Source: Candidatus Woesearchaeota archaeon | Lineage (GTDB): Archaea; Nanobdellota; Nanobdellia; Woesearchaeales; 21-14-0-10-32-9 | Direction of reading: 5' to 3' | Length of the DNA: 64,000 bases | Assembly (NCBI GenBank): GCA_020854775.1 | Contig: JAHKLZ010000005.1 | Coordinates: 49,797 to 113,796 of the forward strand | In this document: positions 5,209 to 55,738 of the stretch, in pieces | Layout: each line of letters begins with the position of its first letter | Numbering within the stretch: position 1 is the first letter of the stretch | Notes under the pieces: model-generated | Told to the model about the DNA's origin: nothing | Database searches by the model: none | The model's input: only the letters and a program-made list of their open reading frames with translations | Position numbers and translations under genes: made by a program

Positions 5209-6177
5209 ATGAGTATCTTGGATGATATTAAAGTCAGAGCTAGGGAGTCTCCTAAGAGGATTGTTTTTCCTGAGGGTGATGATGTTCGTGTTCTGAGGGC
5301 TTGTAGGATTATTCGTGATGAAAATATTGGTTTTCCTGTTATTCTTCGTGGTTCTAAGGCGAAGATTTTGTTGGAGAAAAATAATATTTCTTGTGATGGT
5401 TTAGAGTTGGTTGATGAATCTATTATTGATTTGGGTTCTTATGTTTCTTTGCTTGTTGAGAAGCGTAAGCATAAATCTTTGAGTGCTGAGGATGCTAAGT
5501 CTTTGGTTAAAGATGTTAATTATCTTGGTGTTTTGATGGTTGAGTCTGGTTTTGTTGATTGTATGATTTCTGGTGCTGTTCATCCTACTGCTTCTGTTCT
5601 TAGGCCTGCTTTGCAGATTATTAAGACTAAGCCAGGCGTTAATACTGCTTCTAGTTTTTTTATTGTTTGTAAGGATGATTTGACTTATTTTTTTAGTGAT
5701 TGTGCTTTTGTTATTAATCCTGATGAGAATGAGCTTTGTGATATTGCTTTGAGTACTGCGCGTAGTGCTGAAACTTTAGGGTTTTCGCCTAGGGTTGCTT
5801 TGCTTAGTTTTTCTACTAAGGGTAGCGCGGAGCATGAGTCTTTGATTAAGATTAGGAATGCTTTGAGTCTTATTAAGGAGAAAAATCCTGGTTTGGTTGT
5901 TGATGGCGAGTTACAGCTTGATTCTGCTATTGTTCCTGATGTTGCTAAGTTGAAATGTGGTGATTCTGTTATTAAGGGTGATGCTAACGTGTTAGTTTTT
6001 CCTGATCTTAATTCTGGTAATATTGGTTATAAGTTGGTTGAGCGTTTAGGTGGTTTCATGGCTATTGGTCCTATTGTTCAGGGTCTTAGGAAGCCCGTTA
6101 ATGATCTTAGTAGGGGTTGTGGCGTGGATGATATTGTTCGTGTCGCGATGATTACTGTTGTTGAGGTTGGTAAATGA
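5209..6177 (+). CDS. pta: phosphate acetyltransferase
   Basis: Pta family N-terminus (RIVFPEGDDVRVLRAC) and downstream conservation. ATG at 5209 is preferred over the TTG at 5200 of the listed ORF. A TATA-like TTTATTAATTA lies about 25 nt upstream. Confidence 0.85.
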   Translation: MSILDDIKVRARESPKRIVFPEGDDVRVLRACRIIRDENIGFPVILRGSKAKILLEKNNISCDGLELVDESIIDLGSYVSLLVEKRKHKSLSAEDAKSLVKDVNYLGVLMVESGFVDCMISGAVHPTASVLRPALQIIKTKPGVNTASSFFIVCKDDLTYFFSDCAFVINPDENELCDIALSTARSAETLGFSPRVALLSFSTKGSAEHESLIKIRNALSLIKEKNPGLVVDGELQLDSAIVPDVAKLKCGDSVIKGDANVLVFPDLNSGNIGYKLVERLGGFMAIGPIVQGLRKPVNDLSRGCGVDDIVRVAMITVVEVGK

Positions 6178-19118: not shown

Positions 19119-21320
19119 TTAGTTAGGAGCGTTGATTGCACTAACTGAAGTTCCAGACACGATAACTTCAACTTCTTTGTTTCCAGCGAACTTAGCTTTG
19201 TTAGCTTCAAAGTCAGCTAGAGCAAGTGAAGCTGCTCTTGTGTCTTTACCTTCGTAACCAGCTACTAAGATAGCGTTCTTATCTTCGAACAACTTAATCA
19301 TAGCTTTATTAGGTTCGAACATATCTGCGATTTCTTCGCTGAATTGTTGTACGCCTAATAGGTTAGCTGCTACTGTGTTAGCGTTTGGTCCACCAACTAC
19401 TAGCATTGGTACGTTACCAATCATGTTCATAACTTCTCTGTCTAATACTCCAACGTCAGCTGGTGGTATTGCAACGATTTGGTATGCGCCGTCTGTACTT
19501 GAAACATGTGTTTGTGTGTCTCTTGTTTTTACTACAACTACTGCTTCAGCTGCTTCATGAGGTATACTCATTGTTAGTCTGTTTCTGTCTAGTTGGTATT
19601 CTGGATTATCGATTGTTACACCATATCCTAGCATTAAACCATAGTCTAATCTACCTAGTTGTGTGTTAGGACCATATATTAAATCAGTTCCTTGTGCTTC
19701 GCTTAGTTTGTCTCCGAATGTTCGGAAACCACAAATAGCTTCTTCAGTCGTGCCATTTACATTTACTACGAAACTACCCACTGTACAATTACCATTTATT
19801 GCAGCACCTGTGTATCCAGCTCCATGAGTAAGATTTACAAACAGAGATTCACTACCAAATTCAAACACTAGTCCTTCTGTATCTACACTAACATTTAATC
19901 CTTGGTTTCTCTTCATGTTTATCAAGAAACTGTCAACAGGTGTATCATCCATAAGGATTAAATCTGTACCATCGTCGTAACCCCATAAGAGTTCATCATT
20001 GTCTTGATCAATAGCATAGACATATAGTTCATTGGTTTTAACAGTTCCAATTTCGAATACATCACTGCTTGTGTCTGCTGTTAATCTCATAACATACAAG
20101 TTAGGAGTTGCTACTGTATCATTACTATTCAATACGAAACTTGTTCTTACGAAGTCGATGTTCAAATCAGTTCTTGCGTTGTCAACATATCCTGAGAATT
20201 CTACTGCTACGAATCCTCCTGGTAGTTTCCATTCTTCGCCCATTCCTAATGCAGGCCTGGTTGTTGCACTGTCTGATAATGGATCTTCTCTTAGTTTGTT
20301 GTTAACAATCCCAACAGAATTCAAATAGTTATCTGTGAATGATGTAGTCCATAACCATTCTGCTTCTGACATTCTGTCTGATTCTCCTAGTAGCTCTGCT
20401 GGTTGTCCATCTTCGATTTCAGATGTGATATCTTCGCCAAGTTTCAATACTACGCCGTTGCTTGCATGTCCTGCTTCAACGAACATTAGCTGATCTACTT
20501 TAACTGTGAACCAGTTAGCATTTCTGAATGAGTATTCGTCATTCAAGCTAATAAATCTTGATTCACCGTTTACTATTACTCTAACAGTGTCTTGTGCGAT
20601 TACATCAACTTTTACAGTTACACCATCAACAGTTACTTCGTCTCCTTGGTTGAAGTATTCTTCAACTGAAGATTCTACTGTGAAAGCACCAGTATCATTG
20701 TTGTATTCAGTCACTATGAATTCTCTTCCTAGGAATTCGAATCTTAGTTCTTTGTTTCCTGATCCAAAATCAGAATCATTAACATTTATTTTGCTTGATT
20801 CAAATTCTACTCTGTATTCTATAGCGTCTTCCTTAACAACTAAGTAAGGATTTAATCCGAAGTCTTCATTCAAATCTTTAATTGATGTTTTTACCTTCAT
20901 TTCTTTTTCTGCTAACTCAACTACTTCTTTTACTTTAACGTTGCCACTTCCCCATCTGATTGTTCTATCGTACAATCCTGAAAGGTCTGACTGGTCCAAT
21001 GGTTCAGCTACTTCTGGGAAAGGTGTGTTTAGACCGTATTCGTCATACCAACCACCTTCTACGGTGATTACTCCGCCGCCTACGCTTACAGGTACTTTAG
21101 AATAAGTTTGTAAGCTTGCACCTAGAGCTGCTGCTCCAGCGATGTCTTCAGCTGCTGCTACTGCGCCCACAACTACTTTACCGTTCCATGCGCCGTTCTC
21201 GATTAATGGTGCTGGGTAGTTTCCTAAATCAGCCGCCATTGCTCCCATTACAGTTGCACCAAGCATTGTTGCTCCTGTAAGAACAGCGGTTATTTTTTTT
21301 ACTGTTTTCTTTATGTTCAT
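19119..21320 (-). CDS. S-layer (surface-layer) protein precursor
   Basis: Signal peptide, then a methanogen-type S-layer N-terminal motif (NGKVVVGAVAAAEDIAGAAALGASLQ) and a C-terminal block (ILVAGYEGKDTRAASLALADF). Strong GGAGGTG ribosome-binding site, a ~440-bp leader, and an A/T-tract terminator downstream. Confidence 0.7.
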   Translation of the reverse strand: MNIKKTVKKITAVLTGATMLGATVMGAMAADLGNYPAPLIENGAWNGKVVVGAVAAAEDIAGAAALGASLQTYSKVPVSVGGGVITVEGGWYDEYGLNTPFPEVAEPLDQSDLSGLYDRTIRWGSGNVKVKEVVELAEKEMKVKTSIKDLNEDFGLNPYLVVKEDAIEYRVEFESSKINVNDSDFGSGNKELRFEFLGREFIVTEYNNDTGAFTVESSVEEYFNQGDEVTVDGVTVKVDVIAQDTVRVIVNGESRFISLNDEYSFRNANWFTVKVDQLMFVEAGHASNGVVLKLGEDITSEIEDGQPAELLGESDRMSEAEWLWTTSFTDNYLNSVGIVNNKLREDPLSDSATTRPALGMGEEWKLPGGFVAVEFSGYVDNARTDLNIDFVRTSFVLNSNDTVATPNLYVMRLTADTSSDVFEIGTVKTNELYVYAIDQDNDELLWGYDDGTDLILMDDTPVDSFLINMKRNQGLNVSVDTEGLVFEFGSESLFVNLTHGAGYTGAAINGNCTVGSFVVNVNGTTEEAICGFRTFGDKLSEAQGTDLIYGPNTQLGRLDYGLMLGYGVTIDNPEYQLDRNRLTMSIPHEAAEAVVVVKTRDTQTHVSSTDGAYQIVAIPPADVGVLDREVMNMIGNVPMLVVGGPNANTVAANLLGVQQFSEEIADMFEPNKAMIKLFEDKNAILVAGYEGKDTRAASLALADFEANKAKFAGNKEVEVIVSGTSVSAINAPN

Positions 21321-21780
21321 TTAAACACCTCCGTGTTAAAACATTAACTTTCGTTTTTTGTTTTCAACCGGTATTCTTTTTTTATTTTTTTTTCGCTCAT
21401 TGTCACCGACGATTTTCTTTTGTCACCCGTGGTTTGCGCTAACCAACAATTGCTTACTGGTTAATTTAAGCCCACGAGCACCAACTTACTCTAGTCGATA
21501 ATTCGCTGAACGTACAACTCTAGTATCTTATTTTCTTTATAAAGTTTTCGTACAAATAAGGTTTTTTAGAAACAAAAAATCCGTATTACGCCTTAATTCC
21601 TAAGAATTCCTAAGAATTAAGCTATTATCACTCTCTAGTTACACTCAGCATTTCAGGGTTTTTTCTTTGTGTTCTCGTCTTTGCTTCGTCGAGGCTTTTT
21701 TTAGTGGTTCCTATTAATATATAAGAGCTTGTTTTTTTTGTTTTTTTTACGCAGAATTATTTCATCGATAGGTGTTAAAA

Positions 21781-22260
21781 TTATTCTTTTTTTATTTCTT
21801 TTTTGAGTTTATGTCTTAATTCATTAATTTTTTTTTCGTTTAATTTAATAAGAATAGATTTACATTTCACTAAGAACTCCGGTGATTTTTGAATCATCTT
21901 ATTGTATTGTTCGTCTGGAACAGTTCTGTCTACGTAGTACTGAGAATCAACTCTCGCTTTTAAAGAATCTTCAATAAATCCTAATTCATCTTCTTCAAAG
22001 TACTCTTTTAAGAATCTTTTTGCGAATTCGATAGTGCATGAATGAATTTCACATTTCACACCTAATTTCATCAGAACAGCATATAATGAAAAATAAATCG
22101 TGTAATACGCCGTGGATATTCTCCAATCTTTAATTATGTTTAGCCTCATCGATTCGAGTGCTTCTTCTGATTTTTTAATGTAAGCTTTTGCCAAATCAGA
22201 ATTTGGATCGATTAAGTTCAACCCTTCTTTTTTTTCAATACACCACTTTATTTTATTCAT
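21781..22260 (-). CDS. HEPN domain protein (partner of the upstream nucleotidyltransferase)
   Basis: Helical HEPN-like fold (PF05168-type). Overlaps the minimal nucleotidyltransferase gene by 8 nt, as in HEPN/MNT toxin-antitoxin pairs. Confidence 0.55.
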   Translation of the reverse strand: MNKIKWCIEKKEGLNLIDPNSDLAKAYIKKSEEALESMRLNIIKDWRISTAYYTIYFSLYAVLMKLGVKCEIHSCTIEFAKRFLKEYFEEDELGFIEDSLKARVDSQYYVDRTVPDEQYNKMIQKSPEFLVKCKSILIKLNEKKINELRHKLKKEIKKE

Positions 22261-22906
22261 CTTTAAAAACCACTTCTATAAATTGTTCTGCATTTAAAAA
22301 AACCACGTGGTTTTTTAAAACTTCTTTTATGAGAACGTCTTTCATCATATTTTTCTCAAAATTATTTAAAGGATAACACTTAACACTTATTTCTAAACCT
22401 AAATTCTTTGAAACTTTTTTTATTTCTTCATTATTATGACTTCCTACAATAAAGATATCCAAATCAGAACCTTTTTTTTCTAATCCTTTAACGTAACTTC
22501 CAAAAATTATACCTATTCCTTTAATATGAGGCGTTATTTTTTCTATTATTTCTTTAATTAAAAGTTTTTTTTCTAAAAAAGCAATTAATTTATATTGTTC
22601 TACAAAAACAAGATATCTCTTAGTGAATTCACTCACATTTAATTTAAATATCTTAATTTTACCTTTTGTTTTTGATTCCACAATTCCTTTTTCTTCTAAA
22701 TCTTCAAGGACGAGTTGCGCCGTTCTCGGACTAATTTTTAACAATTTTCCAACTTCTCTAACATAATACTCTCTTTTAAAATCATTAGTGAATAAAGCTA
22801 ATACTCTCAAAGTATTCTCCGTGAATCTTAATTTTTCATACATACGTATACTTAATAATACAACCATTATATAAATTTTTTTATTATTTTCATAATTTAT
22901 CATCAT
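22253..22906 (-). CDS. winged-HTH fused minimal nucleotidyltransferase (MNT)
   Basis: N-terminal wHTH (LKISPRTAQLVLEDLEEKGIV) plus the nucleotidyltransferase motif GSYVKGLEKKGSDLDIFIVG. The real start may be MYEKLRF at 22843. Confidence 0.6.
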   Translation of the reverse strand: MMINYENNKKIYIMVVLLSIRMYEKLRFTENTLRVLALFTNDFKREYYVREVGKLLKISPRTAQLVLEDLEEKGIVESKTKGKIKIFKLNVSEFTKRYLVFVEQYKLIAFLEKKLLIKEIIEKITPHIKGIGIIFGSYVKGLEKKGSDLDIFIVGSHNNEEIKKVSKNLGLEISVKCYPLNNFEKNMMKDVLIKEVLKNHVVFLNAEQFIEVVFKDE

Positions 22907-23005
22907 ACTTTTTTTAGTCGCGCACTCAATGTTTTTCTGTTTTTTATCCTCAATTTGTTTTCCAAAAAATTTTTAAAACAATCATTATACCTTTTAGATT
23001 TGTGT

Positions 23006-23078
23006 GGGCCCATGGTCTAGCGGCTATGATATCTCCCTTACACGGAGAGGATCCCCGGTTCGAGTCCGGGTGGGCCCA
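23006..23078 (+). tRNA. tRNA-Val (anticodon UAC)
   Basis: 73 nt. Acceptor GGGCCCA/UGGGCCC, anticodon loop CUUACAC, T-loop UUCGAGU, discriminator A. Confidence 0.85.
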
Positions 23079-23145
23079 TATATCTTTTTTTGTTATTTCT
23101 TTTTTTTGAGGGATTGCAAAAAATTGGTTAAGGGGTGTTTTTTGG

Positions 23146-23414
23146 TGGCAAGGCTTACTAGGCGTGAAGAAACTTCTCCTCGAGCTATCAAGGTCGGTGG
23201 AGAAACTAAGTGGATTTGTATGTGTGGTTTAACTAAGAATGAACCATTCTGTGATAACTCTCACGAATTCTGTACTGGGGAAGATGAAGATTCTTTGTAT
23301 GAATACACTGAGACTGGTGAAAGAATTCTTATCAGTAAGAAAGAAGATGTTAAGATTAGTAACGAAGGTGATCTTCTTAAAAAATTAGAAGATAAAACCA
23401 AGAAAGATAATTAA
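23146..23414 (+). CDS. CDGSH-type iron-sulfur domain protein
   Basis: Motif CMCGLTKNEPFCDNSH fits CxCxxSxxxPFCDGSH. The listed ORF (23004..) overlaps tRNA-Val, so the start was moved to the GTG at 23146. Confidence 0.5.
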
Positions 23415-23626
23415 TTCTTTTTAATCTTTTTCTTAGTTTTTTTCTTCTCAGAAAAAAAGTGTATGTATATTATTGGTAGTATTCCTGCTGTGTTTAGCAC
23501 TAGTAAACAAATAAACCATGTTAGTTCTTCGTTTCTCGCGGATTTCCAGAGAGCGATTCCTTTCCAGATTAGCTCCCACACTGCCAACAATAGCACTATT
23601 ACGTAAAATGTTTGTGTTTCAATCAT
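23411..23626 (-). CDS. small integral membrane protein (2 TM)
   Basis: 71 aa with two hydrophobic helices and a Lys-rich tail. Overlaps the end of the CDGSH gene by 4 nt. Confidence 0.35.
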   Translation of the reverse strand: MIETQTFYVIVLLLAVWELIWKGIALWKSARNEELTWFICLLVLNTAGILPIIYIHFFSEKKKTKKKIKKN

Positions 23627-23752
23627 TCATAACTAATTTTTTTTAGTAGTTAATAAATGTTTTTAAAATAAAGACAAAAAAAGAAAGAAAGGTTATCAAT
23701 TAATCTACGCGGTAAACATAACCTATCGGGTATGTTGTACTAATTATAAGCC

Positions 23753-24844
23753 TTATAAATTATATAAATGTTTCTGTTTTTCTTTCGGAGATTTTGCAAC
23801 CATTAGATTTAAATCAAAAAGTTTTAATTTCTTCCCTAATACTATGTAATTATTTATTAAAGATTTGCCTTCTTCATTTATAAATACGCCATAATCCCCT
23901 ACTTTAAAATTGTCAGAGTCTTTATTTTTATTAAACATTTTAACTACTGCACAATTTGATGATGCTAAATCTATAAGATTTCTATAAGCAGGAGATCTTT
24001 TCATAATTCCTGAGTTGAGTAATTCATCACCTTTAAAAACCCAGTAGACAGGGTGTCTCGCGTAAGAAATTGTATTAATTGATTTTTTTTCTAAAGGAGT
24101 TATAAATGGAAGATGTTTATTTGAAATAGGATAAACAAGTACTTTTTCTTTGAATTCCGGCATCAACGGCCTGATATTTTCAAATATTAAAAATTTTTTT
24201 TCTTTTTCTAAACGCATATCTAATAAACTTAATAATAAATCCGCTGTTGATATGACTGGATTACAACAATCGCCTGAAGGATATGTTAAAAAATTAAATC
24301 CTAATTTTTTTAATCTTTCATAGCCCTCAAAATTACGTCCTTCAAAAAAGTCTAAATGAAAATTAACTGTTTCTGAAGAAAGATAATCGCTTAATCTCCA
24401 CGCGCAAACAATCGGAAAACAATGAGTTAAATGTTTATTTAACAATTCTTCATAATTCATTGTTGGTTTATTTAATTTAATTTTTTTATCTTTTGAAAGT
24501 CTACCATATACTTTTATTTCAGGCACTCTTTTTTTTGAAAAAAGAGTGTAAAACACATGAATCTTTTCTATATGTTTAACTATTTGTTTAGAAAATTCAT
24601 CAAGTATTTCAAAAGCATTTTCAAAATCTTTAATATCATTATAACAATAATATTGATAATCAGGAATTTTATTAACTTTTTTAAAAGCTTTATTCAAAGC
24701 TATTTTGTATGCTTCATCAAATTTAAAAAAATCATCTACTTTTACAGCCACTCCCAATACTGAGTCAAAATATCCTGGTTCACCATTATTTTTAATAACT
24801 TGTCTTTTAAATAATCTTGAATCGATACCGATTATACTTACCAT
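23753..24844 (-). CDS. hypothetical protein (363 aa)
   Basis: No confident homology. The N-terminus IIGIDSR is reminiscent of the first motif of RNase H-like or RuvC-like nucleases. Lies between two tRNA genes. Confidence 0.4.
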   Translation of the reverse strand: MVSIIGIDSRLFKRQVIKNNGEPGYFDSVLGVAVKVDDFFKFDEAYKIALNKAFKKVNKIPDYQYYCYNDIKDFENAFEILDEFSKQIVKHIEKIHVFYTLFSKKRVPEIKVYGRLSKDKKIKLNKPTMNYEELLNKHLTHCFPIVCAWRLSDYLSSETVNFHLDFFEGRNFEGYERLKKLGFNFLTYPSGDCCNPVISTADLLLSLLDMRLEKEKKFLIFENIRPLMPEFKEKVLVYPISNKHLPFITPLEKKSINTISYARHPVYWVFKGDELLNSGIMKRSPAYRNLIDLASSNCAVVKMFNKNKDSDNFKVGDYGVFINEEGKSLINNYIVLGKKLKLFDLNLMVAKSPKEKQKHLYNL

Positions 24845-30427: not shown

Positions 30428-30778
30428 TTATTTATCTCTGTGTTCCACTTCGTATTGGTACGCTTTTAACTCTATCTTGTTTTCATCCCTTATTATGTAT
30501 AATTCTTCCAAGTCATTTATAACAGTGTGTTCACCCGCTAAATAATAAGAAACATTCAATCTTCTTATTCTAACTTTCTCTATGTTTGTAAACTCGTAAA
30601 TCGTGTGTGGAAAAACACTTGGTGACTTATGCGGATTATTAACGTCAAATAATTTTATTACGAGCACAGGATAATCATCGTTTTGTGAGCCGTACTTCTT
30701 ACACGGCTTACTGCATATTAATACACTGGTTGTTTTGACTCTTATGTTCTTTTCTTTAGGGTCAATATGCGTCTTCAT
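30428..30778 (-). CDS. hypothetical protein (116 aa)
   Basis: ORF only. No motif recognised. Confidence 0.3.
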   Translation of the reverse strand: MKTHIDPKEKNIRVKTTSVLICSKPCKKYGSQNDDYPVLVIKLFDVNNPHKSPSVFPHTIYEFTNIEKVRIRRLNVSYYLAGEHTVINDLEELYIIRDENKIELKAYQYEVEHRDK

Positions 30779-30835: not shown

Positions 30836-30897
30836 GATGGACTCTGCGATATCCTCAACACTTGTTTCAGGACCGCAAACTCCTGATGGACTCTGCG
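30836..30897. repeat. 13-bp direct repeat (GATGGACTCTGCG) copying the tRNA-Ala 3' end, copies at 30836-30848 and 30885-30897
   Basis: Exact duplicate of the acceptor-3'/discriminator region about 50 bp downstream of the tRNA. A hairpin (CAGGA...UCCUG) lies between the copies. Confidence 0.5.
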
Positions 30898-30995
30898 GGA
30901 TTTGAACCCGCGGCCTCACGATCTTTGGACAAAAAAAATTTTTTTTATTCTTTTGTGTGCCAACCGAGCGCTCTACCAGACTGAGCTAAGAGCCC
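30887..30995 (-). tRNA. tRNA-Ala (anticodon GGC) with a ~35-nt intron at 37/38
   Basis: G3:U70 identity pair (GGGCUCU/AGAGUCC), discriminator A, anticodon loop UUGGCA|A, T-loop UUCAAAU. The anticodon stem has one U:U mismatch. The intron carries A8/U8 self-complementarity. Confidence 0.55.
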
Positions 30996-44018: not shown

Positions 44019-45941
44019 TTATTGTTTTTCTTTGATTTCTTGTATTATTTGTTCTGTGAATTTGTCTAGTTTTGCTTCTCCGTGTATTACTCCGTCGCGA
44101 GTTCTTACGTTGATTGTTTCGTTTTGTTGTTCTTTTTCTCCTAGTACTATTATGTATTTTACTTGTTCTAATTGTGCGTTCCTGATTTTTTTACCCATTG
44201 TTTCTGGTTTGTAATCTTTTTCTGTGCGTATTCCTTTTTGTTCTAGGTATTCTATTATTTTATCTGCGTAAATGTTTTGTTTGTCCGTTATTGTTAATAC
44301 TTTTACTTGTACTGGGCTGAGCCATAGTGGTAGTTTTCCTGCGTAGTGTTCTATTAGTACGCCGATGAATCGTTCTAGTGATCCTAGGATTGCTCTGTGC
44401 ACCATGATGGGGTAGTGTTTGGTTCCGTCTTCTCCTTCGTATGTTGCTTTGAATCGTTCTGGCATTTGGAAGTCTAGTTGTATTGTTGAGCATTGCCAGT
44501 CTCGTCCTAATGCGTCTTTTATGTCGAAGTCTATTTTTGGTCCGTAGAATGCGCCTTCTCCTTCTTTTATTTCATAAATCATGTTTTTGTGGTCTAGTGC
44601 TAATTTTAGTGCGCGTTCTGCTTCAGTCCATAATTCTGAGGAGCCCATTGCTTTTTCTGGTTTCGTGCTTAGTTTTATTTTGTATTCGAATTTGAATATT
44701 TTTTTGTATATGTACTCTGTGAAGTCTAGTAAGTCTAGTATTTCTTGTTGTAGTTGTTCTTTAGTACAGAAGATGTGTGCGTCGTCTTGTGAGAATCTTC
44801 TTACTCTGGTTAGTCCTCCTAGGACTCCTTTTAGTTCGTTTCTGTGTAGGGGTGCGAAGTCAGCTATTTTTAGTGGTAGGTCTCTGTAGCTTCTTGTTAT
44901 GTTTTTAAATAATATTAGGTGGCTTGGACAATTCATTGGTTTTAATGAGAATTCTCTTTCATCTATGTTTAGTAAAAACATGTTTTCTTTGTAGTGTTCC
45001 CAGTGCCCTGAGGTTTCCCATAGTGATTTGTCATATATTAATGGTGTTATGACTTCGTGGTATTTTCTTTTTTTGTATTCTTCTCTTAAAAAGGTTAGTA
45101 ATTCGTTGTATATGATTGTTCCTTTTGGGTGGAAGAATGCTGCGCCTGGGCTTACGTCATTAAAAAAATATAGGTCTAGGGCTTTTCCTATTTTTCTATG
45201 GTCTCTTTTTTCTGCTTCTTCTATTAAGTGTAAGTGTTCTTGTAGTTGTTTTTTTTCTGGGAAGCTTATTCCGTATAATCTTTGTAGTTGTTTGTTTTTT
45301 GCGTCTGCTCTCCAGTATGCTCCTGCTATTTTAGTGATTTTGAATGCTTTTATCATTCCTGTTCTGGGAACGTGTGGTCCTCTGCATAAATCTGAGAATT
45401 CTCCTTGTTCGTAAACAGTGATTTTATCTTTGTAGTTTTCTTCGTCTAATCCTATGCCTTTTAGTAATTCGAGTTTGTATTTGTTGTCTTTGAATAGTTC
45501 TTGTGCTTGTTCTTGTGTTAGTTCTTTTCTTTTCACTGGTAAGTTTTCTTTTACTATTTTGTTCATTTCTTGTTCTATTTTTTCTAGGTCTTCTTGTTTG
45601 AATGGTGCGTGATCAATATCGTAGTAGTATCCTTCTTTTACTACTGGTCCTATTGTTAGTTTTGCTTCTGGGAATACGCGTAGTATTGCTTGTGCCATTA
45701 AGTGAGCAGACGAGTGTCTGAATACGTCTTGTCCTTCTTCGTCTTCAAAGGTTAAGAATTTGATTGTTCCATTAGTTCGTATTGGTTCATACAAGTCTTT
45801 TAGTTCTTCGTTTATTGAGTAACAAATGGTTTTTCTTGCTAGTCCTTCTGATATGTTTTTTACTATTTCTTCTCCTGTTATTCCTTCTTCGTATTTTTTC
45901 TTTAATCCATCTGGGAATTCTAGAGTTATTTCTTTAGTCAT
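44019..45941 (-). CDS. thrS: threonyl-tRNA synthetase
   Basis: TGS domain, class II motifs, and a Zn-binding editing/catalytic region (HRDLK...). Confidence 0.9.
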   Translation of the reverse strand: MTKEITLEFPDGLKKKYEEGITGEEIVKNISEGLARKTICYSINEELKDLYEPIRTNGTIKFLTFEDEEGQDVFRHSSAHLMAQAILRVFPEAKLTIGPVVKEGYYYDIDHAPFKQEDLEKIEQEMNKIVKENLPVKRKELTQEQAQELFKDNKYKLELLKGIGLDEENYKDKITVYEQGEFSDLCRGPHVPRTGMIKAFKITKIAGAYWRADAKNKQLQRLYGISFPEKKQLQEHLHLIEEAEKRDHRKIGKALDLYFFNDVSPGAAFFHPKGTIIYNELLTFLREEYKKRKYHEVITPLIYDKSLWETSGHWEHYKENMFLLNIDEREFSLKPMNCPSHLILFKNITRSYRDLPLKIADFAPLHRNELKGVLGGLTRVRRFSQDDAHIFCTKEQLQQEILDLLDFTEYIYKKIFKFEYKIKLSTKPEKAMGSSELWTEAERALKLALDHKNMIYEIKEGEGAFYGPKIDFDIKDALGRDWQCSTIQLDFQMPERFKATYEGEDGTKHYPIMVHRAILGSLERFIGVLIEHYAGKLPLWLSPVQVKVLTITDKQNIYADKIIEYLEQKGIRTEKDYKPETMGKKIRNAQLEQVKYIIVLGEKEQQNETINVRTRDGVIHGEAKLDKFTEQIIQEIKEKQ

Positions 45942-46096
45942 TTTTTACCTCTTGAAAATATTATTTGTTTTTGATTAATTCGTGTGTTTCTTTTTTTTAT
46001 AAAGTTTTTTGATTAATCCACACAATAATGTTTTATAACTACTACTAGATGACACAACATTTATATGTTTTTGTTGTTTTACTTTATTAGTTAAAT

Positions 46097-47011
46097 ATGT
46101 TTTTTTCAAAAAATTATTTAGAGGATTTAGTATTAGTGCCTGTTAGTTCTAATAATAGAGTTGATAATTTTTGTGTTCGTGATGTTTTGTTTTTTTCTGA
46201 TATTTCTGAAAAAGATTCTTTTAATAAAGAGTCTGTTTACAAAAGTTACGTTAAGGGTTTGTCTCTTGAGCAATATAAGAATCAGGGAAGAATTGTTTCT
46301 CTTGATAACAAAGATTATTTTTTGGAATCTGATAGTTTAGTTGAGAGATTAGTTCTTAATAATTTTAGGAAATTCTTTGAAAATACTTGGAATAAAGGTT
46401 TTTCTACTGTTGATTCTGATTTTATTAGTTCTAGAAAAAATTTTTATGAAGAATCAAGTGTTTCTTCTTTGCCTGTTTTAAATCTTGTTCTTGATTTAAG
46501 CACTGATGAATTATTGGTTTTTGAAGCTAAGCCCGACATGGTTAATTTAGCTAAGTATCTTAGTGATGAACGGCCTGATTTTGAAAAAGTTAAAGCTCTT
46601 AATGAGTTATTTGGTTCTCTTAGTGTTATGCATGAGCATAATTACGTTGTTGGTGATCCTACTGCTTTCATCGTTGAGTATTCTGAAGGTAAAGCGTATT
46701 TTACTAATCTTAGGTTTGCTAAGAAAACTATTGCTAACGAGGATTTTGCGCGTGATGCTTCTCAATTCATTATTTCTGGTTCTTATAATTCTGGTTTGCC
46801 TTTAAAGGATTTTGTTGAGTGTTTTTCTAATAATTATGTTGTTTCTGATGATTTCGTTAGGGGTTTGAGAAGTGTTTCTTATAATGATAGTAAGCCTGTT
46901 AATTATTTTTCTGGTTTGGCAAGGAATGTTTTTAGTGGTTTTGTTTTTGGTAAATCTTTTGACGAAGTTAAAAATGAGCGAAGAGAAATCTTGGATTTGC
47001 TTTTTGATTAA
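46097..47011 (+). CDS. hypothetical protein, possibly an atypical (RIO/Bud32/Kdo-like) kinase fold
   Basis: The block MHEHNYVVGDPTAFIVEY resembles a catalytic loop (hH..ihgDl...Nfi). Weak call. Confidence 0.3.
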   Translation: MFFSKNYLEDLVLVPVSSNNRVDNFCVRDVLFFSDISEKDSFNKESVYKSYVKGLSLEQYKNQGRIVSLDNKDYFLESDSLVERLVLNNFRKFFENTWNKGFSTVDSDFISSRKNFYEESSVSSLPVLNLVLDLSTDELLVFEAKPDMVNLAKYLSDERPDFEKVKALNELFGSLSVMHEHNYVVGDPTAFIVEYSEGKAYFTNLRFAKKTIANEDFARDASQFIISGSYNSGLPLKDFVECFSNNYVVSDDFVRGLRSVSYNDSKPVNYFSGLARNVFSGFVFGKSFDEVKNERREILDLLFD

Positions 47012-47136
47012 ATTTTTTTAATAGGAATGCCCACGCGGGGACTTGGACTTTTCAGGTTCAAATCACTCTATCAAATCAATCAATCATATAATTTCGCGTT
47101 TATTTTATATACTTTGATAAATTTTTTATCAATAGT

Positions 47137-47892
47137 ATGAAAGATATTGATTTAATAAATGAATGGAAAAAAGAAGAAAAAAAGAGCTTCGAAGGATGGG
47201 ATTTTTCGTATTTAGGTAATCGTTACGATGAAGGATATCCTGATTGGGATTATGAAGGAAATGCGAAGAATTTTATTAAAAATTCTGAATCTGTTTTAGA
47301 TATGTGCACAGGAGGCGCAGAAGTTTATTGTAAAATTTTATCAACTTTTAAACCGTTTAATGTTAAAGCTATTGAGAAATATGAACCAAATGTTTCTGTT
47401 GCGCAAAAGGCTTTAGATGCTTTCGGAGGAAAAGTTATGTTTGTCACAAATAATGAAAATCTTCCTTTTGAAACAGGTGAGTTTGATTTGGTGCTTAATA
47501 GACATGGTGCTTTTAATGTTAAAGAACTTAGCAGGATCATTCGCAAAGACGGTATTTTTTTCACGCAACAAGTTGAAGCAAATAATTGGTCTGATTTAAT
47601 GTCTGAATTTGGCGATACTCCTAATTGGCCTGATAACACTTTATCAATCGTTGTTGAAAAATTAAAAAAAGAAGGTTTTAAAATTGAAAGGGCAGAGGAA
47701 TGGGAAGGTAAAACTTTTTTTAAAGATATTAAAGCCTTAGTTTTTGTTCTTAAAGTCATTCCTTGGACAATAAATAATTTTGGTGTTGAGAAATACAAAG
47801 AAGTTTTATTGAGACTCCATAAAAAAATAGAAAAAGAAGGAAAATTAGAGTTTTCTTCTAAAAGATATCTTATTTTAGCAAGAAAAAAATAG
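47137..47892 (+). CDS. class I SAM-dependent methyltransferase
   Basis: Motif I VLDMCTGGAEV plus an acidic post-I residue and FDLVLN. A-rich composition, atypical for the top strand. Confidence 0.55.
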   Translation: MKDIDLINEWKKEEKKSFEGWDFSYLGNRYDEGYPDWDYEGNAKNFIKNSESVLDMCTGGAEVYCKILSTFKPFNVKAIEKYEPNVSVAQKALDAFGGKVMFVTNNENLPFETGEFDLVLNRHGAFNVKELSRIIRKDGIFFTQQVEANNWSDLMSEFGDTPNWPDNTLSIVVEKLKKEGFKIERAEEWEGKTFFKDIKALVFVLKVIPWTINNFGVEKYKEVLLRLHKKIEKEGKLEFSSKRYLILARKK

Positions 47893-47905
47893 TTTTTCGC
47901 ACTTA

Positions 47906-49066
47906 TTATTTATTTATTTCTTCGTGAACAAGTATGTTCCAGAAAAATTGTGTTAGTTCATCATCATCTCGTTTCTTTGAGAGTTTTGTTAAATTCATGT
48001 ATTCATCGAAAGAACCCATTTTCAAAATTATTAAAGGGAAACCGTTTTGCATCATTATCCAATTTAAAATCATCCTAGTTGTTCTACTGTTACCATCAGC
48101 AAAAGGGTGTATTCTTTGAAATTCGTTGTGAATCCAACCTAATTTATCTAAACAATTAGCAGAATTTATTTTTTTTATTTCAGAGCAAAAAGAATTCATG
48201 TGCTCAGGAACTTTGCTAGGAATAACTGTTTTAAAATCAGGATTTCCTTGAATTTTGTTTTGAGTTATTTTATATTTGCCTGCGTGCCTGTGCATACTAA
48301 ACATTATCAAGTAATTGATTTTTTTTATTTGTTTTTCAGTTATTTCTTCATCAATATTTTCTAGAACATAAATTAGTGCTTCATTAAGGTTTTTTACCAT
48401 TTGAATATCTTTTTGAGGCTTTTCAGGATAAATATCCTTAACTAATAAATCTCTTGTTTCCCCAATTGAAATAGTCGCGCCTTCAAGTTGAGCGCTACCA
48501 GCGAGAAAAGAAAAAATTTCTTCATCAAAAGGATTTACAGGCTTTCCCTTTATTTTTTTAACTTTTAATTTAACATCCTTAAAATCTATGTTAGGTTTAG
48601 GAACTTTTATTTTAATATCAAAGACACCTAGAATATAATCAAATAATTGATGTCTTAGCATTATCCCTATGTAAGGTTTTTTTTTATGAACAAGGATGAA
48701 TTGATTGTTTTCTAAGTAAGATAAAATATTTAAAATGTCTTTGTTATTTTTTAATTTACGTGGACGTAAATTTGGCAAGTTTTTGATTAAATCTGTTAAA
48801 ATTAAAGGCATATTTTTTGAAAAAAATAAATTATAATCTAAATTATTTTTCAAACAATATTTAATTGTTTTAAATGCATAAAATGTTTTGTTATTTTTAA
48901 TTGGAACATAAAATTTATTTTGTTCTTTTACCCAACCAATTTTTACTAAATTTTTTAATTGAACATATACTTCTGATTTAAAACCCAGTTCCGATTCTCT
49001 GCAAGGGCTTTTTTCAATTAACTTAGCAAAAACATCGTATTTTGTTGGCATAAGCAAAAGAAACAC
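47906..49066 (-). CDS. Fic/DOC family protein (AMPylase-like)
   Basis: Fic motif HPFADGNSRTTR matches HPFx[DE]GNGRxxR. Long N-terminal helical region. Confidence 0.7.
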   Translation of the reverse strand: MFLLLMPTKYDVFAKLIEKSPCRESELGFKSEVYVQLKNLVKIGWVKEQNKFYVPIKNNKTFYAFKTIKYCLKNNLDYNLFFSKNMPLILTDLIKNLPNLRPRKLKNNKDILNILSYLENNQFILVHKKKPYIGIMLRHQLFDYILGVFDIKIKVPKPNIDFKDVKLKVKKIKGKPVNPFDEEIFSFLAGSAQLEGATISIGETRDLLVKDIYPEKPQKDIQMVKNLNEALIYVLENIDEEITEKQIKKINYLIMFSMHRHAGKYKITQNKIQGNPDFKTVIPSKVPEHMNSFCSEIKKINSANCLDKLGWIHNEFQRIHPFADGNSRTTRMILNWIMMQNGFPLIILKMGSFDEYMNLTKLSKKRDDDELTQFFWNILVHEEINK

Positions 49067-49079
49067 TTAAAACTATATA

Positions 49080-49232
49080 AAATTAACTAATTTTAGGAAA
49101 TAAACTAAAAAAACTTAATTTAAGAAATGTATTCGCGCAAACTCTCAATTCAAAAACACCAAACCAAAAAAAATTAAACAGCACTAAATTAACTAATTTT
49201 AGGAAATAAACTAAAAAAACTTAATTTAAGAA
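49080..49232. repeat. two perfect 47-bp direct repeats (49080-49126 and 49186-49232)
   Basis: AAATTAACTAATTTTAGGAAATAAACTAAAAAAACTTAATTTAAGAA occurs twice, 106 bp apart. Lies between the fic start and the tRNA-Arg 3' end. Confidence 0.8.
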
Positions 49233-49244
49233 GGTGCCCACGCG

Positions 49245-49317
49245 GGGATTTGAACCCCGGTCTCAAGCTCCGCAAGCTCGTGTTCTGTCCAACTATACTA
49301 CGCAGGCATTGTTCTTG
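49245..49317 (-). tRNA. tRNA-Arg (anticodon GCG)
   Basis: 73 nt. Anticodon arm CGAGC-UUGCGGA-GCUUG, T-loop UUCAAAU, discriminator A. Confidence 0.75.
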
Positions 49318-49426: not shown

Positions 49427-50551
49427 TTGTTTATGGCTAAGTTAGTTAAGATTAATGAGAAGCAAAAGTTTAAGCTTAAGAAATTCATTAAGGAAGTTGA
49501 GAATCATCGTGGTCGAGGCACGGAATTGGTTTCTGTGTATGTTCCTGCTGGTTATGATTTGAATAAGATTGTTAGTCATATTTCTCAAGAGCAAGGTACT
49601 GCTTCTAATATTAAGAGTAAGCAAACTCGTGATAACGTGATTTCTTCTTTGGAGAAAATTATTCAACATTTGAAGCTTTTTTCTAGGACTCCTAATAATG
49701 GCTTGGTGATTTTTGCTGGTAACGTCGCGGAGCGCGAGGGTCAGCAAGATTTTCAAGTTTGGAGTTTTGAACCTCCTATTCCTTTGAATCAGCGTTTGTA
49801 TAGATGTGATAAAGAATTCGTTTTGGAGCCTCTTCGTGAAATGTTGGCTGATGAGGATTCTTTTGGTTTAATTGCTATGGATCGTAGGGAGGCTACGATT
49901 GCTATTCTTCGTGGTAAGTCCATAGTTGTTGTTGCTAGTGCTGAGAGTATGGTTCCTGGTAAGTTTAAGGCTGGTGGTCAGTCTTCTGTTCGTTTTGCTA
50001 GGAATCGTGAGTTGGCTGCTAAGGAGTTTTATCAGCGTGTTGGTTCTTTGGTTAAGGATCAGTTTTTTGAGTTGAAGGAGCTTCGTGGTTTGATTGTTGG
50101 GGGTCCCGGTCCTACTAAGTATGAATTCGTTGAAGGTAGTTTTTTACCTACTGAGTTAAAGAATAAAGTTATTGGTGTTAAGGATCTTAGTTATACTGAT
50201 GAGTTTGGTTTGCAAGAGTTGTTGGAGCGTAGTCAGGACTTGTTAGCTGAAGAATCAGTGGTTGAGGAAAAGAAGTTAATGCAGCGTTTCTTTGAGAAAT
50301 TATCTAAGAATAGCGGTACCGTAACTTATGGTTTGGCTGATTGTAAGCGTTTGCTCGATATGGGTGCCGTTGATATTTTGTTGATTTCTGATATTGTTGA
50401 TGAAGCCATTATTGATGATTTGATTGAGAAAGCTGAACAGTTTGGTTCTAACGTTGAGATTATTAGTACTGAAACAAGAGAAGGTTCTCAGCTTCGTGAC
50501 ATGGGTGGTTTTGCTGCTATTCTTCGTTATGACGTAGGAGATAATGCTTAG
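49427..50551 (+). CDS. prf1: peptide chain release factor aRF1
   Basis: NIKS motif (TASNIKSKQTRDNV) and GGQ motif (KAGGQSSVRFARNRE). Confidence 0.88.
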   Translation: MFMAKLVKINEKQKFKLKKFIKEVENHRGRGTELVSVYVPAGYDLNKIVSHISQEQGTASNIKSKQTRDNVISSLEKIIQHLKLFSRTPNNGLVIFAGNVAEREGQQDFQVWSFEPPIPLNQRLYRCDKEFVLEPLREMLADEDSFGLIAMDRREATIAILRGKSIVVVASAESMVPGKFKAGGQSSVRFARNRELAAKEFYQRVGSLVKDQFFELKELRGLIVGGPGPTKYEFVEGSFLPTELKNKVIGVKDLSYTDEFGLQELLERSQDLLAEESVVEEKKLMQRFFEKLSKNSGTVTYGLADCKRLLDMGAVDILLISDIVDEAIIDDLIEKAEQFGSNVEIISTETREGSQLRDMGGFAAILRYDVGDNA

Positions 50552-52233
50552 ATTTTCTTAGTCATGTATGGTCCTTCATGTTGGTATCCTAGTTTTTCGT
50601 AGTATTTTCTGACTCCTATTCCTGATATTATTACTATTTTGTTTTTTCCTTGTTCTTTAGTTATTTGTTCTGCTTTTTTCATGAGTTGTTTGCCTATTCC
50701 TCTGTGTTGTGTTATTCCTGTCTTTTGTGGAGCTGTTGCCTCTCCGTATACGTGTAATTCTCGTATTAGCGCGGTTTTATTTGTTATTTCTTTTCTAAGT
50801 TGTGTGCTTGGAAATCTTAATCTTAGGAAGCCTAGTAGTTTTTGGTTTGCGTCTTCTACGTTTATGAAGTATTCTTTTCCTTTGCTTGCTTCGTATTCTG
50901 TTACGTTTAGTGTTGTTGGTTCTTTTATTTCTTGATTTTTTATTTCTCTTACTCTTATTTCTTTTATTTTTTTTCCTTGTTTTTGTATTTCTTGGTCTAT
51001 TGCTTGTCTTAAGTTGCTCATGTTTACGCCGGCTTCTGCTTGCGTTGGTGGTATGTCTCTTTGTACTCTCATTACTCTGCAATATTCTGGTATTTCTGGG
51101 ATAATTTCTGCTAATATTTTTATTGCGTCTTCTGTGTTTAAGGGTTTGTATAATCCTTTTTTGTAATCTTCGTGCAAAGGTGTTCCTGGCATCACCATTA
51201 GTGGATAAATTTTGAGCATGTCTGGTTTGTAATCTTCGTTGTTGAAGAGTTCTTTGAATATTTGTTTTTCTTCTTCTTTACTTGTATCAGGCAGTCCTGG
51301 CATCATGTGAAAATTTAGTTTGAATCCTAGGTCTTTTAGTTCTTGTATGCTTTTCTTTGTATCTTCTAAGGTGTGTCCTCTTTTTACTTTTTTTAATACG
51401 TCATCTTTCAGTGTTTGTACTCCTAGTTCTATTCTTGTGCATCCTAGTTCTAGCATTTGATTTCCGTGTTCCTTAAAGCCTTGGTCTGGTTTGGTTTCTA
51501 TTGTTAGGCCCACGCATTTTATTTTTGAGTCTTCGTTCTTTTTTTGTGCTTCTTTTAGTGTGTCTTTATTTTTTTGTTTGTGTTCTAGGATTTTTTTTCT
51601 TATTCTATTTCCTCTTTCCTCGTTTTTTATGCTTCCTGGTAATTCGAAGAATTCTTTGAATTTTTTAGCATTAAATTCTTCTTCGTAGAATAATTGTGAG
51701 AAATCATTTAATGCGTTGAATACTTGTGTTATGTATTGTTCTCTGTATTCTTTGTTTGTTGCTATGAATGTTCCTCCCATGATTATTATTTCTGCTTTTT
51801 CTGGGTTTTGTCCTATTGCTATGTATTGTTCTAGTCTGTTAAATACTTGTAAGTATGGATCGTAGTTGTTTCTGATTCCTCTCATTGTTGCTGGTTCGTT
51901 TCCTGTGTATGATTGTGGTACGTCTCCGAAGTAGCTTTGTTGTCCTCCCGGGCAGTATGTGCATTTTCCGTGCGGGCACTTAGCTGGGTGAGTCATTATT
52001 GCTATGGTTGCTACGCCTGATATTGTTCTTACTGGTTTGGTTTGTAGTGTTTTTTTTAGTTCAGGTGTTTCTTCTAAATTCAAGTATAATTCTATGTCTG
52101 TTGGTATTTTTTTTAAGCCGTATTTTCTACAGAGTTCTATTTTTTTCTTTGCTATTTGGTTTTTGTTTGGTTTTTGTTTTAAGTATGTTAATATTTCTGA
52201 TAAGAATCCTTGGTCCAGTATTGCTTCGTTCAT
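50548..52233 (-). CDS. elp3: Elp3-like tRNA U34 carboxymethyl-modification enzyme (radical SAM + GNAT)
   Basis: Radical SAM cluster CPHGKCTYCPGG and a C-terminal GNAT block. Typical of archaeal Elp3. Confidence 0.85.
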   Translation of the reverse strand: MNEAILDQGFLSEILTYLKQKPNKNQIAKKKIELCRKYGLKKIPTDIELYLNLEETPELKKTLQTKPVRTISGVATIAIMTHPAKCPHGKCTYCPGGQQSYFGDVPQSYTGNEPATMRGIRNNYDPYLQVFNRLEQYIAIGQNPEKAEIIIMGGTFIATNKEYREQYITQVFNALNDFSQLFYEEEFNAKKFKEFFELPGSIKNEERGNRIRKKILEHKQKNKDTLKEAQKKNEDSKIKCVGLTIETKPDQGFKEHGNQMLELGCTRIELGVQTLKDDVLKKVKRGHTLEDTKKSIQELKDLGFKLNFHMMPGLPDTSKEEEKQIFKELFNNEDYKPDMLKIYPLMVMPGTPLHEDYKKGLYKPLNTEDAIKILAEIIPEIPEYCRVMRVQRDIPPTQAEAGVNMSNLRQAIDQEIQKQGKKIKEIRVREIKNQEIKEPTTLNVTEYEASKGKEYFINVEDANQKLLGFLRLRFPSTQLRKEITNKTALIRELHVYGEATAPQKTGITQHRGIGKQLMKKAEQITKEQGKNKIVIISGIGVRKYYEKLGYQHEGPYMTKKI

Positions 52234-55623: not shown

Positions 55624-55738
55624 GCCTTTGTAGCTCAGTGGTAGAGCGTCTGCCTCGTATCCTCTAAACGAGTTTTTTAGGACTCGATTAAGGGGTGGAG
55701 TAAGCAGAAGGTCGCGAGTTCAAATCTCGCCAGAGGCT
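55624..55738 (+). tRNA. tRNA-Thr (anticodon CGU) with a 43-nt intron at 37/38 (55660-55702)
   Basis: Acceptor GCCUUUG/CAGAGGC with discriminator U, anticodon stem UCUGC/GCAGA, loop CUCGUA|A, T-loop UUCAAAU. Mature length is 72 nt. Confidence 0.7.

Follow-up and report, generated by a model that had tools for sequence, protein, structure and literature searches.

We analyzed a 64-kb window (the whole stretch of DNA examined here, out of a source contig of up to 541 kb) from a metagenome-assembled genome of a Woesearchaeota (DPANN) archaeon, and we focus on a 2.2-kb islet at the 3' end of a tRNA-Arg(GCG) gene that carries two genes, fic and a methyltransferase gene, between direct repeats of the tRNA 3' end. 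An earlier note on this DNA had described the segment as an integrase-less island bracketed by attachment (att)-like repeats. The islet and its neighbors comprise the following features.

44019-45941, minus strand: threonyl-tRNA synthetase (ThrRS)
46097-47011, plus strand: ORFan p304
47028-47048: attR repeat, the displaced copy of the tRNA 3' end (14/14 nucleotides (nt), then 5/7), 16 nt past the p304 stop codon
47049-47064: cassette-side arm TTTTCAGGTTCAAATC, adjoining attR
47137-47892, plus strand: class I S-adenosylmethionine-dependent methyltransferase, 251 amino acids (aa), putative cassette M
47906-49051, minus strand: Fic, 381 aa, putative cassette F
49074-49081, minus strand: archaeal TATA box of fic, 22 nt before the ATG, read from the sequence as TTTATATA (minus-strand letters)
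49080-49126: inner copy of a 47-bp repeat (a 40-bp imperfect palindrome with arms of ~17 nt and a 6-8-nt spacer), abutting the TATA box
49127-49185: 59-bp spacer separating the palindrome copies
49186-49232: outer copy of the 47-bp repeat, abutting the tRNA 3' end
49233-49307, minus strand: intact tRNA-Arg(GCG), the integration target, whose 3' end is attL (ARAGORN; Rfam RF00005)
49235-49255: attL repeat, an exact 14-nt core (49235-49248) plus 7 nt of the T-loop matching at 5/7
49433-50551, plus strand: aRF1
50548-52233, minus strand: ELP3

The tRNA-Arg(GCG) gene was intact, scoring 56.8 bits against Rfam RF00005 (gathering score 29), and was also called by ARAGORN. Its terminal 14-mer, TGCCCACGCGGGGA, comprises the T-stem 3' strand, the acceptor 3' strand, and the discriminator, and the claim that these nucleotides recur 2.2 kb downstream was borne out: exact copies lie at 47028-47041 and 49235-49248, with 0.01 matches expected from shuffles. 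To the question of chance recurrence, which the earlier note had raised, the answer is that no third copy exists in the window with up to two mismatches allowed, and the 14-mer is confined to the two ends of the islet. Similarity between the att copies continues beyond the 14-mer to 19 of 21 nt (47028-47048 versus 49235-49255). The two copies point the same way, the distal one lying downstream of the tRNA 3' end; a tRNA gene with a same-orientation repeat of its 3' end downstream is the classic attL/attR geometry. The trailer of the tRNA now consists of the outer palindrome copy, including a T7 run.

Between the repeats, fic and the methyltransferase gene are convergent, with 13 nt and no att remnant between their stop codons. 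The border on the attR side is a 95-nt AT-rich leader, and that on the tRNA side is formed by the palindrome and the spacer. The bracketed DNA contains no integrase, as the earlier note had stated: the Fic and methyltransferase genes are its only open reading frames (ORFs), its noncoding gaps measure at most 181 nt, and there is therefore no space for an integrase pseudogene. No recombinase was found among the islet ORFs or among 20 other window ORFs of 200 to 450 aa. SSV-type elements leave int(N) and int(C) halves at their borders; no such split halves were present here, and nothing but the tRNA overlaps either att copy.

We compared the locus with its counterparts in other genomes, using aRF1 as the query and one genome per species, which yielded 80 Woesearchaeota and Pacearchaeota loci. 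Neither Fic nor the methyltransferase was near aRF1 in any of the 80. The closest relative keeping the local synteny, L008 (aRF1 83% and ThrRS 73% identical), has the order ThrRS, 138 bp, tRNA-Arg(GCG) with its 3' end toward ThrRS, a 101-aa ORF, aRF1, and ELP3. Neither Fic nor the methyltransferase is present at the L008 site, which answers the comparison with related genomes at this tRNA that the earlier note had proposed. Relative to L008, the window has ~3.15 kb of additional DNA downstream of the tRNA 3' end, consisting of p304 and the bracketed 2.2 kb.

The bracketed genes had also been said to depart in composition from the neighboring core genes, and we found this to be the case at third codon positions. 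These positions are strongly strand-asymmetric across the whole window, regardless of gene orientation: in plus-strand letters, T far exceeds A (AT skew at third positions, AT skew3, ~-0.65) and G exceeds C (GC skew3, +0.3 to +0.6), an asymmetry that may be a replication- or repair-linked mutational bias. The individual values were as follows.

Host genes, plus strand: AT skew3 -0.66, GC skew3 +0.59
Host genes, minus strand: AT skew3 -0.62, GC skew3 +0.33
Methyltransferase: AT skew3 -0.10, GC skew3 +0.22
fic: AT skew3 -0.02, GC skew3 +0.07
p304: AT skew3 -0.58, GC skew3 +0.45
aRF1: AT skew3 -0.65, GC skew3 +0.64

Calculated from the skew values, the departure from host genes is +3.6 standard deviations (sd) for the methyltransferase gene and +2.4 sd for fic. 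p304 and aRF1, which lie just beyond the repeats, are host-like, and the skew vanishes exactly between the repeats. Because the bracketed DNA is unskewed and the att cores are identical at 14 of 14 positions, the insertion appears young, with the host bias not yet acquired. We conclude that the evidence supports the bracketed DNA being inserted and recently acquired.

The Fic protein (NCBI MCC7574165.1) had been described as a 386-aa Fic/DOC protein. Its identity as a Fic protein stood and its length did not: the longer form begins at an upstream GTG that is not the conserved start, and the conserved ATG at 49051 gives 381 aa (MPTKYDVF... in all homologs). The Fic domain was recognized by Pfam (Fic, 2.6e-15; catalytic motif HPFADGNSRTTR), residues 156 to 362 aligned with FICD/HYPE and Clostridioides difficile Fic in a PDB sequence match, and an AlphaFold (AF2) model with a predicted local distance difference test (pLDDT) score of 94 matched FICD in Foldseek (E 3e-11). 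The family, of ~380 aa, is conserved over its full length in more than 120 homologs of 48 to 87% identity, and those with an organism name belong to Woesearchaeota or Nanoarchaeota. An inhibitory-helix motif, (S/T)xxxE(G/N), is present in cis as SAQLEG (residues 186-191), N-terminal to the Fic core, and aligns with TVAIEGN of FICD; L189, E190, and G191 do not vary among 46 homologs, in which S186, A187, and Q188 are at least 90% conserved. The active-site loop reads HPFxDGNSRxxR (canonical, HxFx(D/E)GNGRxxR), with Ser for the second Gly in all 46 homologs and with the His, Phe, Asp, Gly, Asn, and both Arg residues invariant among them. The Ser in GNSR may alter the choice of co-substrate. Judged from these motifs, Fic is a class II, cis-autoinhibited enzyme of the AMPylase type, with AMPylation activity, and a target for it, predicted.

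Fic shares with the class II proteins human FICD/HYPE and C. difficile Fic the same Fic fold, an inhibitory helix on the same chain, and a catalytic His loop. The N-terminal part of FICD consists of tetratricopeptide repeats, whereas that of the window Fic is modeled as tandem winged-helix-like: residues 1 to 150 have a predicted fold (pLDDT 93) of two helix-helix-helix-hairpin units, and the structures they match are all winged-helix (MarR, Sso10a, TrmBL2, SelB, Stn1, Vps25), all below significance. Among PADLOC profiles, the Fic domain matched PDC-S04 (1.8e-30) and SoFic (9e-21). SoFic is a single-gene defense protein with a C-terminal winged helix-turn-helix (wHTH), which the window Fic lacks. 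These matches make a defense- or abortive-infection-like role possible for Fic alone. Relatives of Fic or of the methyltransferase on viruses were sought in IMG/VR, and none were found.

The methyltransferase (NCBI MCC7574164.1) is a class I enzyme, as had been claimed, with Pfam Methyltransf_11 just over its cutoff (23.1 bits, cutoff 21.2) and Methyltransf_25 below its own. Searches of PDB sequences, PADLOC, and PHROG gave no match for it, and its homologs are patchily distributed in Woesearchaeota, Aenigmarchaeota, and Patescibacteria. The further suggestion that Fic and the methyltransferase form a toxin/antitoxin-like pair did not survive. Because the inhibitory motif lies in cis, a separate antitoxin is not needed, and the methyltransferase is not the antitoxin of Fic. 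In class I Fic pairs (VbhT/VbhA), by contrast, a separate small co-transcribed antitoxin supplies the motif; we rejected a pair of this type here, given the motif in cis and the convergent orientation of the methyltransferase gene. Reading of the 251-aa methyltransferase sequence revealed no (S/T)xxxE(G/N) motif, and the gene adjoins fic in just one of eight other distinct fic contexts (L095, another Woesearchaeote), where an att copy separates the two. The methyltransferase is independent cargo of a generic class I type.

Two perfect 47-bp repeats, 106 bp apart, had been noted between fic and the tRNA. We confirmed that the copies at 49080-49126 and 49186-49232 are identical and spaced 106 bp (~10 helical turns) apart, and we found that they are not an anonymous island repeat: the sequence is a fic-promoter palindrome that lies directly upstream of every fic homolog examined, whatever the genomic context. 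The palindrome spans 40 to 42 bp and is imperfect, with arms of ~17 nt (AATTAAsTTwwTTTTAGG) and an asymmetric spacer of 6 to 7 nt. Its dyad pairs 12 to 15 of 17 positions in 11 copies, compared with 6.0 +/- 2.0 in random sequence of the same composition (P(>=14) = 2e-4), and its inner pairs covary (AGG/CCT for the window type, GTA/TAC for L112). The palindrome is more strongly conserved than the fic coding sequence (89-98% versus 73-85%). The position of the TATA box is conserved in all fic homologs examined, and the palindrome abuts it at a fixed distance; the DNA that fic loci have in common covers ~1.22 to 1.24 kb, bounded by the stop codon at one end and the outer edge of the palindrome at the other.

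A palindrome overlapping the transcription factor B recognition element (BRE) and the TATA box has the look of an archaeal repressor site. Given such a palindrome over BRE/TATA and the winged-helix-like domains of Fic, autorepression would explain the arrangement most economically, and the palindrome is probably an operator bound by the N-terminal domains of Fic, which would repress its own gene. The second, outer copy was restricted to the window, L094, and L095, aside from the L094 ortholog L100; it lies 105 to 106 bp away and is always followed by a tRNA-3'-like att; the 59-bp spacer (49127-49185) is ~75-80% kept in L094 and L095, as estimated from the sequences. No palindrome was found in viral contigs. 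Metagenome contigs gave eight matches, seven of them chance matches within coding sequence; the sole real one was L100, a short contig orthologous to L094 that holds the outer copy and att only. In L104, inverted palindrome copies flank fic (4941-4972 and 6137-6168; 32 nt, 97% complementary), and the downstream copy begins at the stop codon. The noncoding DNA of the window did not fold into hairpins significantly better than shuffles (z -1.9 and -1.6), and a bacterial promoter/terminator scan of the window was uninformative, its models not being suited to an archaeon.

Further evidence on how the islet arose came from other loci carrying its genes. L095 encodes a Fic 86% and a methyltransferase 80% identical to those of the window, in permuted order: fic (minus strand), two palindromes, att1, ATTTCAGGTTCAAATC..., the methyltransferase gene (plus strand), att2, a peptidase C25 gene, a palindrome-like stretch, and att3. 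The att3 copy belongs to an intron-containing tRNA (5313-5444; Rfam 43.4 bits; missed by ARAGORN), of which it forms the 3' end. The three att copies of L095 share 13 identical nt (CGCCCAGGGTGGG; 0.01 expected), which are those of the L095 tRNA, not of tRNA-Arg. We also considered att1 and att2 as tRNA genes and rejected this, both being fragments of the real tRNA at 5313-5444. The arm TTTTCAGGTTCAAATC by attR in the window is kept beside the att copy preceding the L095 methyltransferase gene, a pattern seen in the window population and L095 and in no others, and the arm TTTCAGGTTCAAATC beside the methyltransferase gene is likewise common to both. In the window it is fic that adjoins the tRNA, and the methyltransferase gene lies outside fic. 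Permuted order and different tRNAs indicate that the cassettes were inserted one at a time, the newest nearest the tRNA. We read the missing att between the window fic and methyltransferase genes as a small deletion that fused two cassettes.

Homologs of fic with 54 to 87% identity occur in eight further distinct contexts, among which are the following.

L090: 9 nt past the fic stop codon, a ~10-nt fragment of a tRNA 3' end, followed by the native trailer of that tRNA
L093: fic ~270 nt past a tRNA of the same kind, flanked by a 67-nt direct repeat (79% identity)
L112: a 1.24-kb cassette between 79-nt direct repeats (96% identity)
L091: fic between rpl11 and rps6e, no repeat seen
L092: fic between mgtE and metK, no repeat seen
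L094: fic next to an att fragment and a wHTH-MNT/HepT-like pair

The pair in L094 (2-882) consists of a wHTH-MNT nucleotidyltransferase and a HepT-like (HEPN) protein, and its att-side arm resembles that of the L095 peptidase C25 cassette, so different cargo stands behind a similar arm. The direct repeats of L112 (4834-6228) are spaced 1316 apart, and the repeat of L093 (1541-3150) is the 5' end of a small gene (MVKKTIIRKP...); as target duplications, those of L093 and L112 are unusually long. In L093, fic is preceded by an intron-containing tRNA-like gene, with an ORF resembling LAGLIDADG_3 homing endonucleases (826-1167) immediately upstream of it; the tRNA-like gene (~1196-1350) was detected by neither ARAGORN nor Rfam and was recognized by its similarity to L095 alone. 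More distant homologs, a Fic of 54% identity (L104-L111) and a methyltransferase of 60% identity (L118-L122), lie between attC-like hairpins of 80 to 140 nt with a TAAC...GTTA base, paired L boxes, and fold z scores of -6.6 and -6.7. Their neighbors vary between samples exactly at the hairpin edge ("TAACAT"), and many contigs end there. These loci look like integron-type cassette arrays in DPANN archaea of the kind known as clusters of attC sites lacking integron-integrases (CALINs), in line with the integron-like arrays previously described from Nanoarchaeota. Boundaries of the attC type were considered for the window as well and rejected, its noncoding parts folding no better than shuffles.

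Taken together, these observations lead us to propose, with moderate confidence, that the segment 47042-49232 is a young, non-autonomous islet of two single-gene cassettes that entered at the 3' end of tRNA-Arg(GCG) by way of a circle, mobilized in trans, and whose fic is self-contained and probably self-repressed. In this model, circular DNA bearing a copy of the tRNA 3' end (a 14-21-nt core) would have recombined into the 3' end of tRNA-Arg(GCG) in a Campbell-type event. The insertion would have restored a complete tRNA, its trailer now supplied by the element, and left the displaced 3' fragment 2.2 kb away beside the host-like p304. The two cassettes appear fused tail to tail: cassette F (~1.24 kb) would comprise the palindromic operator, the TATA box, and fic, and cassette M the methyltransferase gene plus the conserved arm on its att side; an att copy would be expected between the two cassettes and has presumably been lost. 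Neither cassette encodes a recombinase, so movement must depend on one encoded elsewhere, most likely the tyrosine integrase of a related element and less likely short-homology recombination by the host. The model predicts the empty-site junction TTTTTAATAGGAATGCCCACGCGGGGATTTGAACCCCGG and the circle junction CTTAATTTAAGAAGGTGCCCACGCGGGGACTTGGACTTTTCAGG. The earlier note had spoken of one element at tRNA-Arg that was decayed or mobilized in trans. Integration at the tRNA stands, and the single element gives way to a fusion of two single-gene cassettes; mobilization in trans is favored by the reordered L095 cassettes bounded by tRNA 3'-end copies, and decay less so.

Several findings weigh against this proposal. 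L008 is a different species that also lacks p304, and hence is not an exact empty site. Neither an empty site nor a circular junction was found: same-population contigs, retrieved by exact look-up of the p304 or aRF1 protein, all carry the islet, are 99.97 to 100% identical to the window, and have scattered, patternless ends. Neither a cognate integrase nor an autonomous parent was identified in the 64-kb window, the related loci, or viral contigs. The junction of fic and the methyltransferase gene holds no att remnant, and the description as two cassettes rests on the comparison with L095. Elsewhere fic is flanked by direct repeats that are not tRNA-derived (67 nt in L093, 79 nt in L112), and some fic cassettes lie between attC-like hairpins, such that the route of mobility is not uniform. 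Finally, the winged-helix assignment of the Fic N-terminal part is below significance (Foldseek best E 0.05; Pfam TrmB/MCM_C wHTH E ~0.07).

We were concerned that the islet might instead be a dead remnant, namely a larger integrative plasmid or provirus that lost its own integrase and everything else by deletion and is now immobile. The lack of an integrase, the failure to find an islet-free population variant, and the resemblance of the 13-nt, att-less junction between convergent stop codons to a deletion scar would all fit. In L095, however, both genes are separate att-bounded units in another order, and fic travels as a sharply bounded 1.24-kb unit into many contexts. The noncoding DNA of the islet (181 nt or less) is without integrase fragments, and the identical 14/14 att copies and unameliorated skew point to a young event. 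We regard a dead remnant as unlikely.

A second alternative dispenses with a dedicated integrase: circularized cassettes would enter by host homologous or short-homology recombination at any shared sequence, tRNA 3' ends being used since they are conserved. The flanking repeats do differ fully in sequence and length from locus to locus (14-21 nt in the window, 13-43 in L095, ~10 in L090, 67 at 79% identity in L093, and 79 at 96% identity in L112), as expected under this alternative, and no recombinase has been found. Nevertheless, 13 to 14 nt is very short for RadA-type recombination, and insertion has made recurrent use of the tRNA 3' end, three times in L095 and, in the window, at two different tRNAs. 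Moreover, cassettes with different cargo have similar att-side arms (TTAGGAC..TTCAGG) and a palindrome-like arm by the tRNA, which argues for common protein-binding sites. On balance, entry by host recombination alone seems quite unlikely.

It could also be that the palindrome is itself a recombination site of the lox, dif, or attC kind, making fic an ORF-plus-site cassette and the tRNA repeat secondary. Its dyad symmetry and asymmetric 6-7-nt spacer would suit such a site, cassette homology stops at its outer edge, the element is flipped in L091, inverted copies flank fic in L104 (32 nt, 97% complementary), a fic-less copy abuts the tRNA in L095, and distant homologs of fic and the methyltransferase gene sit in attC-like cassette arrays. 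Against this, the palindrome is invariably placed right beside the fic TATA box, with the same spacing even in homologs of 54% identity, which is the behavior of an operator. Most fic cassettes lack it at their other end, the boundary of the methyltransferase cassette shows just a degenerate palindrome-like stretch, the noncoding DNA of the window has no significant hairpin folding (z -1.6, -1.9), and the 14-nt tRNA duplication would go unexplained. This role for the palindrome is, in our judgment, improbable. That the two genes are native and vertically inherited, with the 14-mer a chance match or an unrelated tRNA pseudogene fragment, is scarcely credible: the Fic family is common in Woesearchaeota (more than 120 full-length homologs), but the 14-mer has a chance expectation of 0.01, both genes are absent from the syntenic L008 and from 80 aRF1 loci, their skew is off that of the host by +3.6 sd (methyltransferase) and +2.4 sd (fic), and their homologs sit in unrelated contexts.

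Returning to the proposed trans-mobilized islet, a wider reading can be entertained, tentatively and with more doubt than belief. Woesearchaeota may possess an integron-like capture platform in which a tRNA 3' end serves as attI. A recombinase whose gene lies at another place in the genome, or on a helper element, would take up self-promoted single-gene cassettes downstream of tRNA genes, stack them, and change their order; the same cargo families would be exchanged between this platform and attC-type arrays in related DPANN archaea. Cassettes seen that would belong to such a platform are fic with its own operator, the methyltransferase gene, the C25 peptidase gene, and HEPN-MNT pairs.

The window contains additional traces at tRNA genes. 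Rfam added two intron-containing tRNAs (30887-30995, minus strand; 55624-55738, plus strand) to the five called by ARAGORN, for seven in the window. The first of these (Rfam 53.2 bits) was missed by ARAGORN, and its last 13 nt, CGCAGAGTCCATC, occur exactly again at 30836-30848, 49 nt downstream (0.02 expected); the region 30836-30995 resembles a further insertion, or the scar of one, at a tRNA 3' end of this genome. An unskewed 116-aa ORF (30428-30778) follows the repeat at 30836-30848. A second block of weakly skewed or unskewed genes extends over 19119-24844 and includes the following.

19119-21320: S-layer-like protein
21781-22260 and 22253-22906: HEPN and MNT nucleotidyltransferase toxin-antitoxin pair by tRNA-Val
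23753-24844: 363-aa ORF without a family match, directly downstream of the tRNA-Arg(TCG) 3' end

A search for att-like repeats of tRNA-Val and tRNA-Arg(TCG), allowing up to three mismatches in 14 nt, found none. For p304, on the far side of attR, a search of 5.8 billion proteins gave no homolog other than p304 itself; the gene may represent an earlier cassette of this array. Within p304, a 14-nt exact match to the palindrome, TAATTTTAGGAAAT, lies at 46360-46373. In the spacer between ThrRS and p304, ATCCACACAATAAT (46016-46029) agrees at 13 of 14 positions with what GC-to-AT decay of the tRNA 3' end would give; ~0.02 such matches would be expected in the 155-nt spacer, an estimate from the background rate, and the match is post hoc and a lead only.

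Little is understood of how DPANN archaea, with their tiny genomes and dependence on hosts, acquire and swap genes. The locus and its relatives give a concrete route of gene exchange, in which tiny recombinase-less cassettes target tRNA 3' ends, stack, and change order between species. A skew-free insert in a skewed host amounts to an internal clock and could point to further DNA gained recently by genomes of this type. Because intron-containing tRNAs in these genomes escape ARAGORN, integration sites can be overlooked. The fic cassette, in turn, appears to carry its own conserved palindromic promoter element and would be a compact example of a self-regulated archaeal Fic.

The islet shares with the tRNA islands of tyrosine integrases (bacterial P4-type; archaeal pNOB8-type and SSV-type) an intact tRNA, a 3' direct repeat, foreign composition, and absence in a relative. 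Such islands usually have an integrase by att, whereas the islet, at 2.2 kb and with two cargo genes, has no whole or split integrase and no replication, transfer, or virion genes. A second comparison is with the cis-mobilizable elements (CIMEs), for which tandem accretion at att sites has been described in Streptococcus ICESt1/CIME (reviewed in PMC5704250). Like the islet, CIMEs are flanked by att sites and lack genes for recombination or transfer, and their units are stacked with att between them, as in L095. The differences are that the host here is archaeal, that the units are single genes of 1 to 3 kb, and that a helper element with an integrase was not found in the window, the related loci, or viral contigs.

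The tycheposons of Prochlorococcus integrate into tRNA genes in a streamlined genome, with successive insertions pushing older ones inward (bioRxiv 10.1101/2020.12.28.424599). In tycheposons, partial tRNA copies separate neighbors and degenerate remnants leave cargo behind, and the L095 array is similar; tycheposons, however, carry a tyrosine recombinase and replication genes, which the window and L095 units lack, and the cassettes described here are much smaller. Integron cassettes and CALINs have been reported in Archaea, Nanoarchaeota included (PMC9668308). Integron cassettes are likewise single-gene units (promoter-bearing or promoterless), stacked and reshuffled, with toxin-antitoxin and defense cargo typical. 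The window differs from them in having no attC-like structured site and no IntI or other recombinase among the window ORFs scanned, its boundary repeats being copies of a tRNA 3' end. The islet is of a known kind, a tRNA-integrated genomic islet, and what sets it apart is the combination of no recombinase with tiny single-gene modules, their reshuffling at different tRNAs, and the fic gene's own palindromic promoter element.

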